A stretch of 4,256 nt of DNA from a virus (lineage: Duplodnaviria > Heunggongvirae > Uroviricota > Caudoviricetes). Location of the stretch: IMG/VR virus record IMGVR_UViG_2537561928_000019, one strand, 5' to 3'. Below are positions 69-3,804 of the stretch, piece after piece (the first letter of the stretch is position 1; each line of letters starts with the position of its first letter). Both the position numbers and the translations under genes were made by a program. The notes below the pieces were generated by a model. It searched no databases, was not told the DNA's origin, and saw only the letters and a program-made list of their open reading frames with translations.

Positions 69-224
69 TCACTCACCTGAGTTTCTTTCCAGCCAGCGAC
101 GAGCGCCAGTTTCGGTTTTAAACGTTTTGCTTTTGGTATACGTCATCGCGGTGAATGTGCCGTCCTGGTTGGGAAACACGCCGCATACCAGAGATTCGCT
201 GTTGCCAAGATCGATAGTATCCAT
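69..224 (-). CDS. ydfA: Small 51-aa prophage protein, YdfA-like (DUF1391-type family of the Qin dicB-operon region)
   Basis: Within track ORF 69..302(-). Chosen start is the internal Met at 224 (MDTIDLGNSESLVCGVFPNQDGTFTAMTYTKSKTFKTETGARRWLERNSGE) because a GAGGT SD sits 4 nt upstream. The 51-aa length and sequence match my recollection of the YdfA family; assignment is from memory, not a search. Confidence 0.5.
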   Translation of the reverse strand: MDTIDLGNSESLVCGVFPNQDGTFTAMTYTKSKTFKTETGARRWLERNSGE

Positions 225-400
225 GCTGACCTCATTTCCCCTTAACGCCGGGGTAGCGGAACAAAAACCTGCTGCATAGTTAAAGTTGAACCCTGCCGTC
301 ATGTTCTTACGCCTCGGGCTGGCTACTTAACCCCTGACCACTGCCTGGTAACTCGAAGTATTGCCCTGCATTATGTGGGGCGGGGTGGGTTGATATTTTT

Positions 401-512: not shown

Positions 513-791
513 TTAGGGAAACTGGCGTCTTGCGTGGATCACGTTTACTACTTCAACGCTTGATGTTGTTACGCGGTATAGAATTATATAGTTAGGGTGG
601 GCTACAATCTCACGCAAGCCAGGTACTCTGTCGCTTGGTGGGTATAAATACGGATGTTCGGATAACGGCAGCACACAACCCCTTAATCGCTGCCATAAGC
701 GTTCAGCCGCATCTATGTCGAAACGAGCAATATAACTAGTTATATCATCTAGGTCGGTATCTGCGCTTTCAAGCCATAACACGGGTAACAT
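513..791 (-). CDS. parE2: ParE-family (RelE/ParE superfamily) type II toxin, 92 aa
   Basis: Within track ORF 513..887(-); start placed at the internal ATG 791..789, 1 nt after the stop of the upstream antitoxin (TAAtATG). Protein MLPVLWLESADTDLDDITSYIARFDIDAAERLWQRLRGCVLPLSEHPYLYPPSDRVPGLREIVAHPNYIILYRVTTSSVEVVNVIHARRQFP has the typical ParE layout and a C-terminal ...YRV...V.VV.V.H.RR motif. I cannot tell paralog 1 from paralog 2 by eye. Confidence 0.75.
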   Translation of the reverse strand: MLPVLWLESADTDLDDITSYIARFDIDAAERLWQRLRGCVLPLSEHPYLYPPSDRVPGLREIVAHPNYIILYRVTTSSVEVVNVIHARRQFP

Positions 792-792
792 T

Positions 793-984
793 TTACTGCT
801 TGCTCCGTTCCTTGCGCATTTTAGCAAAGCGTTCTGCCATTCTGCGCTCAACTTCGTCATGGGGAATTGCTGGGCGTGGATCTGCAAGGCTCGTTGCTAC
901 TTTTGCACGCAGCCATTCGTTGTAACTGTTTTCTTGTTCAATGGTTTCAAATTCAGAAACCATTGGTGAAAGGGCTCTATTCAT
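793..984 (-). CDS. paaA2: PaaA2-type antitoxin (small, likely disordered), 63 aa, partner of ParE
   Basis: Within track ORF 793..1038(-); start at Met 984..982 has a GGAGG SD 4 nt upstream (rc of 989-993). Protein MNRALSPMVSEFETIEQENSYNEWLRAKVATSLADPRPAIPHDEVERRMAERFAKMRKERSKQ matches my recollection of the E. coli O157 PaaA2 antitoxin. Lies between the regulator and the toxin in one operon. Confidence 0.7.
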   Translation of the reverse strand: MNRALSPMVSEFETIEQENSYNEWLRAKVATSLADPRPAIPHDEVERRMAERFAKMRKERSKQ

Positions 985-1004
985 GTTTCCTCCGGTTTTA
1001 TAAC

Positions 1005-1376
1005 TCAGGCGCGGCGGCATTTTTGCGCCGCAATCCATCTCGCTATGAGATCTTCCATTGATTCTTTTTTCTGCTTTAACTCGCTGATTATCTGGCGTTG
1101 CTCATCCTCAGGGAAGGCTGAAAAAATCTGCAATAATTCCAGTTGATTAGACGTTAACCCTGCATGTGGTGGAGAAACCTCCGGTTGTTCTGCGTATTCC
1201 GCATCCAGATACCCTTCCGGCATCCCGTATGTTTGCTCTATTCTTCTGGCAGCCTTTTCTCCAAACGAGGCTCTCCCACTCATTAGTTGAGATAGGTAGC
1301 TCTTCTCTTTGGGTGGCAGAGTTTTATCTTTAAACCACTCCTTGAGACGTAAACGGCGAATTTCTTTTTTTTGCAT
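1005..1376 (-). CDS. paaR2: PaaR2-type CI-like HTH transcriptional regulator, 123 aa (first gene of the three-component TA operon; occupies the prophage repressor position)
   Basis: Within track ORF 1005..1481(-); start placed at Met 1376 (MQKKEIRRLRLKEWFKDKTLPPKEKSYLSQLMSGRASFGEKAARRIEQTYGMPEGYLDAE...). The N-terminal HTH-like segment (SYLSQLMSGRASFGEKAARRIEQTYGMPEGYL) resembles the YdaS-like protein encoded divergently. No SD before ATG 1376, but a GATAAT -10 lies 6 nt upstream, suggesting a leaderless transcript. The stop is 20 nt before the paaA2 start. Confidence 0.7.
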   Translation of the reverse strand: MQKKEIRRLRLKEWFKDKTLPPKEKSYLSQLMSGRASFGEKAARRIEQTYGMPEGYLDAEYAEQPEVSPPHAGLTSNQLELLQIFSAFPEDEQRQIISELKQKKESMEDLIARWIAAQKCRRA

Positions 1377-1474
1377 GTGGTAATTATCTTTAGTAATCAC
1401 TAAACAAGCAAATACTTGACTTAATGGTTTATTAAACACTAAACTCTCAAAAAAAACACTAAACCGAGGAAGGT
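1377..1474. promoter_or_regulatory. Divergent promoter/operator region (OR-like) between paaR2 and the ydaS-like gene
   Basis: Palindrome TTTAGT-aatc-ACTAAA at 1389-1404. Three ACTAAAC-containing elements at 1398-1405, 1438-1444 and 1459-1465. Rightward candidate promoter: TTGACT 1416-1421, 18-nt spacer, TAAACT 1440-1445, then GAGGA SD 1466-1470 before ATG 1475. Leftward candidate promoter (minus strand): -35 TTGCTT (rc of 1406-1411), 17-nt spacer containing the palindrome, -10 GATAAT (rc of 1383-1388). Confidence 0.6.
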
Positions 1475-1777
1475 ATGACATTAAAAGAGTTTATTAAATC
1501 ATTGAGGGTTGGTGATGCTAAGAAATTCGCAGCCAGACTTGGTGTATCGCCATCTTACTTATCGCAAATGGCGTCTGGACGAGCAGCTATATCTCCAACA
1601 CGCGCCCTTATGATCGAATCTGCGACGGAAGGCCAAGTAAGTAGGGCGGAGCTACGACCCCATGATTGGGAGCTTATTTGGCCTGAGTATGCGAGCGGCA
1701 TTCGTTTGGGGCAAACACATGTAGTTCATGCTGAAGGTGATTGTAGTGCATGCTTATCTGATGGAGTTGATTCATGA
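1475..1777 (+). CDS. ydaS: YdaS-like Cro-type HTH regulator, 100 aa
   Basis: Track ORF 1475..1777(+). HTH-like segment FAARLGVSPSYLSQMASGRAAISPTRALMIESAT. Divergent from the CI-like regulator, as in cI/cro and racR/ydaS pairs. Stop overlaps the next start (ATGA at 1774-1777). GAGGA SD upstream. Confidence 0.7.
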   Translation: MTLKEFIKSLRVGDAKKFAARLGVSPSYLSQMASGRAAISPTRALMIESATEGQVSRAELRPHDWELIWPEYASGIRLGQTHVVHAEGDCSACLSDGVDS

Positions 1778-2199
1778 AAATCAAGCATGAACACATCCGC
1801 ATGGCGATGAATGCCTGGGCGCATCCGGACGGTGAAAAAGTTCCGGCTGCGAAAATTACCAAAGCGTATTTCGAGCTGGGAATGACGTTCCCGGAACTGT
1901 ATAACGACAGCCATCCGGAAGCCCTGGCTCGCAATACTCAGAAAATTTTCCGCTGGGTGGAGAAAGACACCCCTGATGCGGTTAAAAAAATTCAGGCGTT
2001 GTTACCAGCTATCGAAAAGGCAATGCCACCTCTGCTGGTGGCCCGAATGCGCAGCCACAGTTCAGCCTATTTTCGGGAGCTGGTGGAGACACGGGAGCGA
2101 CTGGTGAGAGACGCTGATGATTTTGTCGCAGTGGCAATCGCCGGTTTCAATCAGATGAACCGCGGTGGCCCGGCAGGAAATGCTGTGGCAGTGCATTGA
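1774..2199 (+). CDS. ydaT: YdaT-like protein (CII-like regulator of Rac/CP-933P-type prophages), 141 aa
   Basis: Track ORF 1774..2199(+). N-terminus MKIKHEHI... and size match my recollection of the YdaT family. Translationally coupled to the ydaS-like gene through the ATGA overlap. Confidence 0.75.
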   Translation: MKIKHEHIRMAMNAWAHPDGEKVPAAKITKAYFELGMTFPELYNDSHPEALARNTQKIFRWVEKDTPDAVKKIQALLPAIEKAMPPLLVARMRSHSSAYFRELVETRERLVRDADDFVAVAIAGFNQMNRGGPAGNAVAVH

Positions 2200-2270: not shown

Positions 2271-3341
2271 ATGGCTAACGCCTGGCTCAGATTATGGCAT
2301 GACATGCCAAATGACCCTAAGTGGCGAACAATTGCCAGGGTGTCAGGGCAGCCAATTGCAACAGTGATGGCAGTGTATATCCACCTCCTGGTGAGCGCGT
2401 CACGAAATGTCACGCGAGGTCACATTGATGTCACGACAGAAGATTTGGCAAGTGCGCTCGACGTGACAGAAGAGGTAATTGATTCAATTTTGCAGACGAT
2501 GCAGGGGCGGGTACTTGACGGTGATTTAATCACTGGATGGGAAAAACGCCAGGTGCTGAAAGAGGACAACGGCAATATTTCGCAAACCGCAAAATCTCCT
2601 GCAGAGCGCAAGAGGGCGCAGCGAGAGAGGGAAAGAAAGCGGGAACAAAATGGCAATTGTCACGGCGCGTCACGAAATGTCACGCACATGTCACGACGAG
2701 TCACGACAGATAAAGATACAGATAAAGATACAGATCAAGAAGATCAAAACACTATGGTCCATGGCGTAAAAAACGCCACGAACCAGGCAGGGGATGTTCA
2801 GACCGTCAATCCTGGTCAGCCAGCAGGCACGACACCGGAAGCCGATTCAGCGTATGCGCTGAAAGCCGATTCGGGCGCTGTGCAGCAGGTGATGACCGCA
2901 AGGCCGGAGCAATCACACCAACTGCAGCAGCCTGAAGCCGATTCCGCCATTCAGCGGGAAGCCGATCGGGTAGTCCCGGAAAACACCGGGCAGCCTGTGA
3001 GACGAGTGGATTATCCGGATGTGTTCGAACAGGTCTGGCGGGAATACCCGCTGCGTGCTGGGGCAAACCCGAAGAAATCCGCTTTCAGTGCCTGGAAGGC
3101 CAGATTACGCGAGGGGGTGTCACCAGAGGCCATGCTGGATGGCGTGAGGCGTTACGCAAGATACCTTGCGGCTACCGGGAAAACGGGAACGGAATTTGTT
3201 CAGCGAGCGACGACGTTTTTTGGACCGGACCGGAATTTTGAAAACCCCTGGCTGCTCCCGGTAAGCGGCACGAACAACCAGCGTTGTGTGAATCATATTT
3301 CTGAACCGGATACCGAAATTCCACCGGGCTTCAGGGGGTAA
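2271..3341 (+). CDS. Putative phage replication initiation protein (in the YdaU / lambda-O position) with a low-complexity central linker and embedded iterons
   Basis: Track ORF 2265..3341(+). I prefer ATG 2271 (MANAWLRLWHDMPNDPKWR...) with GAGGTG 3 nt upstream; GTG 2265 is the alternative. The C-terminal segment VFEQVWREYPLRAGANPKKSAFSAWKARL... resembles a motif I recall from phage replication proteins. The central part is Asp/Lys/Thr-rich low complexity encoded by DNA repeats. Position after the cro/cII analogs matches lambdoid O-type genes. Confidence 0.65.
   Translation: MANAWLRLWHDMPNDPKWRTIARVSGQPIATVMAVYIHLLVSASRNVTRGHIDVTTEDLASALDVTEEVIDSILQTMQGRVLDGDLITGWEKRQVLKEDNGNISQTAKSPAERKRAQRERERKREQNGNCHGASRNVTHMSRRVTTDKDTDKDTDQEDQNTMVHGVKNATNQAGDVQTVNPGQPAGTTPEADSAYALKADSGAVQQVMTARPEQSHQLQQPEADSAIQREADRVVPENTGQPVRRVDYPDVFEQVWREYPLRAGANPKKSAFSAWKARLREGVSPEAMLDGVRRYARYLAATGKTGTEFVQRATTFFGPDRNFENPWLLPVSGTNNQRCVNHISEPDTEIPPGFRG
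2399..2435 (+). repeat. Iteron-like direct repeat cluster 1 (4 copies of GTCACR at 10-11 bp phasing)
   Basis: GTCACG at 2399 and 2409, GTCACA at 2419, GTCACG at 2430. The 21-mer GCGCGTCACGAAATGTCACGC at 2396-2416 recurs exactly at 2666-2686. Confidence 0.5.
2659..2705 (+). repeat. Iteron-like direct repeat cluster 2 (5 copies of GTCACG at 10-11 bp phasing); candidate origin core
   Basis: GTCACG at 2659, 2669, 2679, 2690 and 2700, one copy per helical turn, immediately followed by an AT-rich tandem repeat. Located inside the initiator gene, as lambda ori is inside O. Confidence 0.55.
2707..2750 (+). repeat. AT-rich tandem repeat (CAGATAAAGATA x2, then degenerate CAGATCAAGAAGATCAA); possible DNA-unwinding element
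   Basis: Exact 12-bp tandem duplication at 2707-2718 and 2719-2730, followed by degenerate copies. Encodes DKDTDKDTDQEDQ in the initiator. Directly 3' of iteron cluster 2. Confidence 0.45.
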
Positions 3342-3381: not shown

Positions 3382-3804
3382 GTGGCAAAAGTTTTTACAC
3401 AAGAAGAGCGGGAAAAAATTAAAGGGCAGGTTGTTGAACTCGTACGCCGGAGTGGGCGTGAGACGTTACGGCAACTGGAAGTCAAGACAGGTGCGACAAG
3501 ATATCTGATGAGCGTTCTCGCAAGAGAGCTGGTTGCCAGCGGCGATGTATACAACTCTGGTTACGGGTTATTCCCGTCTGAACAGGCGCGTAAGGACTGG
3601 CAAAATGCCCGTAAAAAGCTCTCAAGGGCAAAGCTGAAGGAACCATCTGCGGTTGATCCGGACCTTATCTGGTCATTACCTGACGGAGAAATACGTCGTT
3701 ACGACAGGCGTCATAATATGATTTGTACTGAGTGTCGTAAAAGCGAAGTTATGCAGCGCATATTGTCGTTTTATCAGGGGGATGTCCGGTATTTATTGAA
3801 GTGA
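3382..3804 (+). CDS. Hypothetical protein, 140 aa, function unknown
   Basis: Track ORF 3382..3804(+). GTG start with AGGAGG SD at 3372-3377; an in-frame stop 18 nt upstream limits any extension. Starts 40 nt after the initiator stop, so probably the same operon. The protein is basic with a possible HTH-like N-terminal segment (RETLRQLEVKTGATRYLMSVLARELV) and a C-terminal CTECRK motif. I do not recognise the family. Confidence 0.6.
   Translation: MAKVFTQEEREKIKGQVVELVRRSGRETLRQLEVKTGATRYLMSVLARELVASGDVYNSGYGLFPSEQARKDWQNARKKLSRAKLKEPSAVDPDLIWSLPDGEIRRYDRRHNMICTECRKSEVMQRILSFYQGDVRYLLK

Follow-up and report, generated by a model that had tools for sequence, protein, structure and literature searches.

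The locus described here raises the question of whether a prophage replication origin lies inside the gene for its own initiator. The window, by which we mean the whole stretch of DNA analysed (4256 bp of IMG/VR record IMGVR_UViG_2537561928_000019), covers the region of a lambdoid prophage of the E. coli type that governs immunity and replication. One of its genes encodes a 356-residue protein that matched phrog_3729, a family annotated as "replication initiation protein", over its full length (E-value 3.5e-256), and that is named "phage replisome organizer" both in its RefSeq relatives and by the annotators of Escherichia phage Tritos. Tritos, a prophage of strain LF82, is the closest deposited phage, and its TRITO_36 is 99.2% identical to the window protein. 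We refer to this protein as the organizer, and it is because of this homology that we label it an initiator. An earlier reading of the window made from its letters alone (the sequence-only reading) had proposed that the gene contains an iteron-type origin with an AT-rich region, similar in plan to that of phage lambda. Our comparisons with related loci supported this proposal through a layout that recurs across the family, repeat cores that are specific to each lineage, and conservation of the repeats at third codon positions. We conclude that two hexamer arrays together with an adjoining AT-rich tract are likely to be the replication origin of this prophage, situated in the gene of its own initiator.

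Hexamer arrays and an AT-rich tract in the organizer gene

On the plus strand of the organizer gene the hexamer GTCACR (GTCACG or GTCACA) occurs nine times as a direct repeat, with four copies in an upstream cluster 1 and five in a downstream cluster 2 (coordinates of all features are collected in Table 1). The spacing is 10, 10, and 11 bp in cluster 1 and 10, 10, 11, and 10 bp in cluster 2 (means of 10.25–10.33 bp), so that each cluster has the three or more helically phased direct repeats seen in iteron-type origins. The copies were found at every position given by the sequence-only reading, at its spacing of 10–11 bp, and the open reading frame that it had drawn around them was also confirmed. 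Its count of nine was right for the plus strand, but it had missed a nearby tenth copy that is inverted. The exact 21-bp duplication it had noted, comprising two hexamers with a spacer and connecting both clusters, proved real, but was placed one base too far to the right; at the coordinates given, 2396-2416 and 2666-2686, the last bases differ.

Taking both strands of the window together there were 11 matches to GTCACR against 3.07 expected, a number that none of 200 dinucleotide-preserving shuffles of the window reached. The 46,360-bp Tritos genome has the hexamer 23 times on the plus strand and 12 times on the minus strand (~20.6 expected per strand), and the two clusters in its organizer gene were the only sites where at least two copies fell within 25 nucleotides of each other.

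Directly after the last hexamer of cluster 2 there is a 12-bp tandem repeat, ACAGATAAAGAT (2706-2741; 2.9 copies with 95% matches), which is as the sequence-only reading had described it. The best 40-nucleotide stretch here (~2710-2749) is 75% A+T as compared with 46% for the whole gene, and is the maximum within the first 900 nucleotides of the gene. Iteron origins have an A+T-rich element of this kind next to their repeats, and the tract at 2706-2750 is accordingly placed for one; that it melts is a prediction. All of these elements are also coding sequence: cluster 1 encodes residues 43-55, cluster 2 residues 130-145 in the linker region, and the AT-rich tract an acidic/basic linker, DKDTDKDTDQEDQ (residues 146-160).

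Two other kinds of site that we looked for gave no signal. Matches to the DnaA box (TTATNCACA, with up to one mismatch) numbered 3 against 3.5 expected in the window, none of them near the repeats, and there is thus no sequence-level sign of DnaA involvement. There were 9 GATC sites against 14.7 expected, and those at 2733 and 2742 were unremarkable. Just past the AT-rich tract is an imperfect inverted repeat that also scores as a terminator-like site on the minus strand. A palindrome stands beside the AT-rich region of lambda ori, and we considered the hairpin as a possible family feature; this was rejected, as the best hairpin scores after cluster 2 averaged 6.1 across the loci and 5.2 at random positions.

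IMG/VR held 582 viral contigs related to the window. The 80 relatives kept from our first scan of it were all 99–100% identical, and were usable for studying copy-number variation and not for tests of divergence. Among such near-identical prophages (loci L005-L084) the ACAGATAAAGAT unit is present in one to three exact copies and the region is 494, 500, 506, or 512 nucleotides long. Of 38 distinct sequences, 34 retained all nine hexamers and four lacked one hexamer each.

The two-cluster layout recurs across the family

For divergent comparisons we assembled 79 loci, made up of 74 genome and metagenome-assembled genome (MAG) contigs, the window, and four phage loci. The contigs represent gamma-, beta-, and alpha-proteobacteria as well as MAGs labelled Acidobacteriaceae/Terracidiphilus, Flavobacteriaceae, Gemmataceae, and Anaerolineaceae. 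Arrays were detected as exact 6-mers. Two clusters, at about +130 and about +350 to +450 from the start of the gene, were present in 58 of the 79 loci, with a core that depends on lineage (GTCACG, GTAACG, GTGACG, GCAACG, or CGAACGC) and that changes in cluster 1 in step with cluster 2. The first 600 nucleotides of the gene had a mean of 3.8 phased hexamer pairs (3–7 in most genes), as compared with 0.9 in the 600 nucleotides upstream and 0.8 in the 600 nucleotides further downstream, where the maximum was 2.

The positions of the clusters are also retained. The cluster 1 offsets of +128, 138, 148, and 159 recur in homologs from Aeromonas, Pseudomonas, Bordetella, Aquitalea, and others. For example, GTCAC(G) stands at exactly these four offsets in the organizer genes of two phages, Aeromonas pAEv1818 (71% identity) and Pseudomonas P7869 (69% identity), which also have a second array between about +387 and +417 and, at +192, the inverted copy. 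More distant phages have other cores in the same plan. An uncultured podovirus has CGAACGC three times between +121 and +143 and five times between +311 and +362, with (GAA)n behind, and Ralstonia phage Firinga has GCAACG five times between +129 and +181 and four times between +400 and +430, with an AGAGAAG-type tract behind. In most homologs cluster 2 has 3–5 copies at +350 to +450. The number of copies in cluster 1 can change as well. In E. albertii (L086) and E. coli STEC711 (L169, 5901-5953) a 21-bp insertion, equivalent to window positions 2409-2430, adds two GTCAC hexamers to cluster 1 and seven residues (TCHGVSL) to the loop of the winged helix described below.

The AT-rich tract is part of this recurring plan. 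The gene's most AT-rich 40-nucleotide stretch starts between -10 and +40 nucleotides from the end of cluster 2 in 51 of 61 loci. These tracts average 65% A+T against 44% for the loci, GC-rich hosts included, are 73% purine on the coding strand, and typically have the form (GATAAA)n or (AGAGAAG)n.

Eight loci (L111, L113, L128, L129, L130, L133, L150, and L152) had no cluster 1 and no array of exact hexamers, though one of them, L128, still shows a long tract of (AGATAA)n from +374 to +416. Either the iterons of array-less loci are too degenerate for our detector or the origin of these elements lies elsewhere. We also looked at whether the two clusters are in helical phase with each other. Distances between them were about 250, 260, 270, and 280 bp (R = 0.77 for a period of 10), but because iterons at the edges of the clusters are gained and lost, and are themselves 10–11 bp apart, this comparison is confounded and we draw no conclusion from it.

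Selection on the hexamers acts at the DNA level

Since both arrays are within coding sequence, the repeats might simply reflect a protein linker of repetitive or low-complexity sequence and have no function as DNA. The 12-bp unit of the AT-rich tract is in frame, encodes DKDT repeats, and varies in copy number, and the 21-bp duplication encodes ASRNVT twice, all of which would be expected of a repetitive peptide. The hexamers do not behave in this way. Their codon offsets are 2, 0, 1, and 0 in cluster 1 and 1, 2, 0, 2, and 0 in cluster 2; the 10–11-nucleotide period thus places them in all three reading frames, and no peptide repeat results.

A more direct comparison used 25 homologs of the N-terminal domain with different GTCAC-type sequences, from different species, that are 51–99% identical to the window protein by tblastn and were drawn from phage records and from bacterial contigs with one genome per species. 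The sequence-only reading had proposed that free variation of the repeats at synonymous positions would count against it. We found instead that third codon positions in the four cluster 1 cores were 96.5% conserved, as compared with 55.7% elsewhere in the first 210 nucleotides of the gene. The synonymous positions of the cores therefore hardly vary, while the spacers next to them encode changing amino acids (for example R/Q, N/G/S, I/V/A, and T/H/K/A). Positions flanking the hexamer were near-random save for a preference for T at -1, and positions in the inverted copy were 68–92% conserved. In cluster 2 the hexamers occupy different reading frames in different homologs. By our reading of the sequences, the AT-rich tract of L093 (ACAGATTAGATAAG...) would have stop codons in the frame used in the window, and so must be read there in another frame. 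This comparison indicates that selection on the hexamers acts at the DNA level. We consider it very improbable that a protein linker accounts for the repeats as a whole; for the hexamers that explanation is already contradicted, and for the AT-rich tract taken alone it keeps some probability.

The arrays are inherited with the N-terminal domain

Matches of the organizer to PHROG families are modular, with one set covering residues 1-160 and another, to DnaD-like helicase loader or primosomal protein families, covering residues 200-356. The two halves have separate histories. Organizers with the same N-terminal domain keep GTCAC arrays despite different C-terminal halves and different downstream genes: in STEC711 the C-terminal half has a Pfam DnaT domain and is followed by a P gene, in pAEv1818 there is a helicase downstream, and in P7869 a primase-helicase. 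Conversely, the window protein's C-terminal domain stands behind unrelated N-terminal domains in Shigella phage 75/02 Stx (65% identity) and in mEp460, and we found no GTCAC arrays in the replication genes of these two phages. The mosaic breakpoint between the window and several E. coli relatives falls at about 2728, which is inside the AT-rich tract. The arrays therefore follow the N-terminal domain and not the C-terminal domain, and the N-terminal domain, both arrays, and the AT-rich tract appear to be a single inherited module. As the core motif changes with the lineage of the N-terminal domain, the repeats vary with their presumed binder as iterons do with a cognate initiator.

The replication gene of mEp460 (L171) has repeats of its own at the domain junction (+265 to +414), namely ATTCAC, GTGCAG, and GAACCA at spacings of about 12–45 nucleotides. 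These are probably another type of iteron at the equivalent position.

This pattern of inheritance bears on two other explanations. Phased short repeats can serve as operators, the N-terminal domain has a fold resembling winged helix-turn-helix (wHTH) transcription factors, and there is a weak promoter-like match on the minus strand (2683-2656) inside cluster 2; the arrays could then be transcriptional operators, bound by the organizer or by some other phage or host protein, that have nothing to do with replication. We regard this as improbable, since the arrays follow the initiator N-terminal domain through differing immunity and regulatory contexts and differing hosts, adjoin the most AT-rich tract of the gene in the 51 of 61 loci noted above, and have no other conserved neighbouring gene across the loci. 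In addition, promoter-like matches in the window were at chance level (8 in total vs. 5.5 ± 2.5 expected).

The second explanation is that the arrays are a packaging (pac) site, a recombination site, or some other cis-acting site that happens to lie in a replication gene. Terminase recognition sites can indeed be arrays of phased short repeats within a gene, as in the pac sites of SPP1 and P22. Against this, the arrays co-vary with the initiator N-terminal domain and not with packaging genes, the terminase genes of Tritos are about 32 kb from the organizer, and the layout is one that fits iterons with an unwinding element. Of the explanations considered here we give this one the least credence.

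Domains of the organizer protein

The AlphaFold2 model of the N-terminal domain had a predicted local distance difference test score (pLDDT) above 90 over residues 11-90, with helices at 16-25, 29-45, 56-63, and 67-77 and a beta hairpin at 78-88. The domain is thus predicted with confidence to be a helical bundle ending in a helix-turn-helix and a beta hairpin, i.e., a winged helix. In this fold, the residues encoded by cluster 1 form the last part of helix 1 and the loop that leads into helix 2. Foldseek searches of the model against the PDB identified nothing at an E-value of 0.001 or less; the list was mostly wHTH regulators, a generic resemblance. The domain also gave a match to PF09681 (Phage_rep_org_N) that stayed below the cutoff of 23.3 bits (16.6 bits, E-value 0.0083), although the alignment took in positions 1-119 of the 121 in the profile; just 3 of 53 relatives matched this family at E < 0.01. 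There was no match of the N-terminal domain to the lambda O family in Pfam, even at E-values up to 10, and a tblastn search found the domain in no classical lambdoid phage or other classical model phage. We also searched for recognition-helix residues that track the type of hexamer. No clean specificity determinant emerged, because the clades differ throughout and the loop encoded by cluster 1 is dictated by the DNA motif.

At the other end of the protein, the last 25 residues (332-356, encoded by 3267-3341; SGTNNQRCVNHISEPDTEIPPGFRG to the end) resemble the C-terminus of the host primosomal protein DnaT in an end-to-end alignment. The matches were to DnaT chains in the PDB (6aep, 2ru8, and 9zbt; E-values 0.017–0.064) and to the NCBIfam DnaT model (E-value 0.0015, far below the family cutoff). 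Shigella phage 75/02 Stx has the same ending and mEp460 one that resembles it (IPAGFRG), and relatives carry a bona fide Pfam DnaT DNA-binding domain. The C-terminal domain of DnaT forms filaments on single-stranded DNA and docks on PriA in the preprimosome (PMC13377028). As a lead, the organizer tail may be a mimic of this host replication-restart protein.

No P, DnaC, or helicase gene follows the organizer in the window, and both a phage helicase loader and a DnaB-type helicase are absent from the window and from the annotation of the whole Tritos genome. Related phages of Aeromonas, Pseudomonas, and Ralstonia have loader and DnaB-type helicase genes after the organizer. The organizer is the sole protein annotated as a replication protein in Tritos, a phage that forms plaques and was propagated on MG1655 hsdR- (PMC9928086); a module of this composition therefore suffices in a living phage.

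Comparison with the origins of lambda and SPP1

Judged by layout, the anatomy is that of lambda ori in gene O, and is closer to SPP1 oriL in gene 38. In lambda and the Shiga toxin (Stx) phages the iterons and an AT-rich tract are in the middle of gene O, the N-terminal domain of O binds them, and its C-terminal domain recruits the helicase loader (PMC7466680). The window resembles these origins, and the equivalents in phi80 and P22, in that the iterons, with an AT-rich tract after them, fall in the middle of the initiator gene, where the linker is encoded: cluster 2 and the tract are between the folded N-terminal domain and the C-terminal module that begins at residue 200. As in lambda, the DNA-binding domain and the origin are inherited as a module with recombination in the linker, here at the breakpoint near 2728, and changes in iteron number add residues. 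Stx phage O has two extra iterons and 13 extra residues (PMC7466680), the counterpart of the 7 added in E. albertii and STEC711.

The differences from lambda are also clear. Lambda iterons are 19-bp imperfect inverted repeats (PMC7466680), whereas here there is an asymmetric GTCACG hexamer every 10–11 bp and no 19-bp inverted symmetry. There are two clusters, not one, with cluster 1 inside the region encoding the DNA-binding domain, the organizer is not a member of the lambda O family, and DnaA boxes are not above chance. Nor is the gene followed by P, which was present solely in mosaic relatives with another C-terminal half.

SPP1 oriL is in gene 38 and has direct repeats as well as an AT-rich unwinding element, bound by the organizer gp38 (PMC6316719). 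In the SPP1 sequence we saw GAAACGACA-type repeats with an 11-bp period (+360 to +404, counted from the ATG) and, behind them, an A/T-rich tract that reaches about +458. In the window, cluster 2 and its tract have the same order and position (+388 to +480). The assignment of these SPP1 repeats as the gp38 boxes is our own reading of the sequence. In both proteins the DNA-binding part is N-terminal and distinct from the C-terminal part. Similarity between them is not demonstrable, and G38P itself matched just Phg_2220_C in our Pfam scan. Gene 38 also differs in having no repeat cluster at about +130, the second binding region, oriR, is about 13 kb away rather than 260 bp upstream, and SPP1 encodes the loader gp39 and the helicase gp40, neither of which is encoded in the window.

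The sequence-only reading could not name a family for the repeats and suggested that they might be an uncharacterised type of origin or a second regulatory site. They do appear to be an uncharacterised member, as we found no description of this origin or of GTCACG-type iterons in the searchable literature, searches on replisome organizers with iterons and on PF09681 gave nothing about the present family, and papers on Eru replication regions of Stx phages did not discuss origins. The organizer family can be named (phrog_3729), however, and the layout of cluster 2 and its tract matches SPP1 gene 38; the kind of origin is therefore already known and not new.

Neither lambda nor SPP1 gene 38 has anything that corresponds to the second intragenic cluster. 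Short repeats for one initiator are arranged in two clusters in satellite phage P4 (ori and crr) and in plasmids P1 and F, where an unwinding site has a required or regulatory partner. The P4 alpha primase-helicase and the RepA/RepE initiators are unrelated to the organizer, and their clusters flank or are outside the initiator gene, kilobases or a whole gene apart.

How the proposed origin might work and what cluster 1 might do

If the arrays are an origin, a scheme like the following can be proposed. Derepression would lead to transcription of the rightward operon (cro-like, CII-like, and organizer genes), and the winged helix of the organizer would bind the GTCACG sites. As these are about one helical turn apart, bound monomers would line one face of the DNA and could oligomerise into a complex like the lambda O-some. 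The purine-rich, 70–75% A+T tract next to cluster 2 would then melt, cluster 1 and the inverted copy, about 230–260 bp upstream, might join the complex by looping or else modulate it, and the C-terminal module would bring in host helicase-loading factors. Binding, melting, looping, and helicase recruitment are all inferred steps.

Alternatively, the two clusters may divide the work, with cluster 2 and the AT-rich tract as the origin proper and cluster 1 with the inverted copy as an auxiliary or regulatory site. Cluster 1 might then titrate or handcuff the initiator, block transcription to allow autoregulation, or enhance origin firing. Parallels to such an arrangement would be the inc iterons of P1 and F, or the crr of P4. 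It is consistent with the 11 loci of 79 that have cluster 2 and no detectable cluster 1, with SPP1 gene 38, where repeats are solely at the cluster 2 position, and with the variable copy number of cluster 1 in E. albertii and STEC711. It would also agree with lambda, where unwinding in vitro needs just the iterons that adjoin the AT-rich region (PMC7466680). On the other hand, cluster 1 is maintained at a constant offset in 58 of 79 loci despite its cost to coding and its core changes with that of cluster 2, and in Stx phages the extra, distal iterons are required for replication (PMC7466680). We take a division of this kind to be a serious possibility that falls somewhat short of an even chance.

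Several points weigh against reading the arrays and tract as an origin. The homology of the organizer to replisome organizers that have been studied experimentally is weak; an hhalign comparison of our N-terminal domain alignment with SPP1 G38P gave no significant match, and so homology to such a protein cannot be claimed. The searchable literature yielded no binding or origin-function experiments on the organizer family. With the exact-6-mer detector, 11 of 79 loci had the downstream cluster alone and 10 had no array, and cluster 1 may therefore be dispensable. The argument for DNA-level selection on cluster 1 rests on eight third-codon positions per sequence because the array overlaps conserved protein sequence. 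Finally, at 70–75% A+T over 40 nucleotides the tract is moderate in absolute terms, and its conservation could be partly at the protein level, since it also encodes a charged linker. Even with these points we still consider an origin within the organizer gene likely.

A broader view would join three proposals, and we advance this combination tentatively, as something we think rather unlikely to hold in full. The layout would be functionally bipartite, with one array in the codons for the winged-helix loop and the other about 230–280 bp downstream beside the unwinding element, such that initiators bridge or loop the DNA between them or cluster 1 acts as a brake. The lineage-specific cores, of which there are at least five, would represent a natural recognition code between initiators and iterons across several bacterial phyla. 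Finally, the E. coli version would need no phage helicase loader by virtue of its mimicry of the DnaT C-terminus, linking origin firing to replication restart.

Gene context

The remaining features of the window are listed with those of the organizer gene in Table 1.

Table 1. Features of the 4256-bp window, with those of the organizer gene first
Feature	Coordinates	Strand	Basis or remarks
Replisome organizer / replication initiator gene	2271-3341	+	356 residues from ATG
N-terminal winged-helix domain, presumed iteron binder	2271-2660	+	Residues 1-130; AlphaFold2, Foldseek, Pfam
C-terminal module, presumed recruiter of host helicase machinery	2868-3341	+	Residues 200-356; phrog_18526, phrog_1701 "DnaD-like helicase loader"
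Iteron cluster 1, four GTCACR	2399-2435	+	Copies at 2399, 2409, 2419 (GTCACA), 2430
Iteron cluster 2, five GTCACG	2659-2705	+	Copies at 2659, 2669, 2679, 2690, 2700
Exact 21-bp duplicate	2395-2415 = 2665-2685	+	Two hexamers and spacer
Single inverted hexamer (GTCACG on minus strand)	2462-2467	-	27 nucleotides past cluster 1
AT-rich, purine-rich tract, putative DNA unwinding element	2706-2750	+	ACAGATAAAGAT x2.9, then CAAGAAGATCAAAAC
Imperfect inverted repeat	2755-2785		13-nucleotide arms, 5-nucleotide loop
DUF1391 gene	69-302	-	
ParE gene	513-887	-	Pfam ParE_toxin, E 4.8e-16
PaaA2 gene	793-1038	-	Pfam PaaA2, E 1.7e-19
DicA/PaaR2-like repressor gene	1005-1379	-	
Candidate sigma-70 promoter, consensus-level	1416-1445	+	9/12 matches (weak evidence); 5' of cro-like/CII-like/organizer operon
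YdaS/Cro-like gene	1475-1777	+	
YdaT/CII-like gene	1774-2199	+	
DUF977/Ren-like gene	3382-3804	+	Next gene after organizer

The genes for the PaaR2-like repressor, PaaA2 antitoxin, and ParE toxin (513-1379, minus strand) occupy the place of the cI repressor gene, which suggests that the repressor for immunity belongs to a toxin-antitoxin operon. Two regions of the window, 395-440 and 1389-1463, have AT-rich sequences that are related to each other and look like operators or promoters; these repeats flank the ParE/PaaA2/repressor block in the manner of left and right operators. They include a 24-nucleotide inverted pair (402-425 and 1414-1437, 79% complementary), a direct pair (TTTAGTAATCACTAAAC at 1389-1412 and TTTATTAAACACTAAAC at 1428-1451), and identical promoter-like hexamers (TTGACT...TAAACT) on opposite strands at 428-401 and 1416-1445. 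The rightward one of these might drive transcription across the putative origin.

Implications

An iteron origin inside an initiator gene is a kind of element that has long been known, a specialist would expect one here, and the general picture of how phage origins are constructed is unchanged. What the present comparison adds is the strength of its comparative evidence, a conserved two-cluster layout with co-varying cores, and a site that overlaps the coding sequence of its own presumed binder. It places a probable origin at nucleotide resolution for a replication module that prophages of E. coli and Shigella very commonly carry, and makes the 2390-2790 fragment with the organizer gene a candidate minimal replicon. 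The arrays are also a clear case of a DNA site that constrains an overlapping protein sequence, and the 79 loci pair initiator variants with their iterons and could be used to examine changes of specificity among winged-helix initiators. In prophage biology the fragment with its gene may be of use as a marker for typing replication modules, and for predicting replication incompatibility or cross-activation among prophages that reside in the same host.

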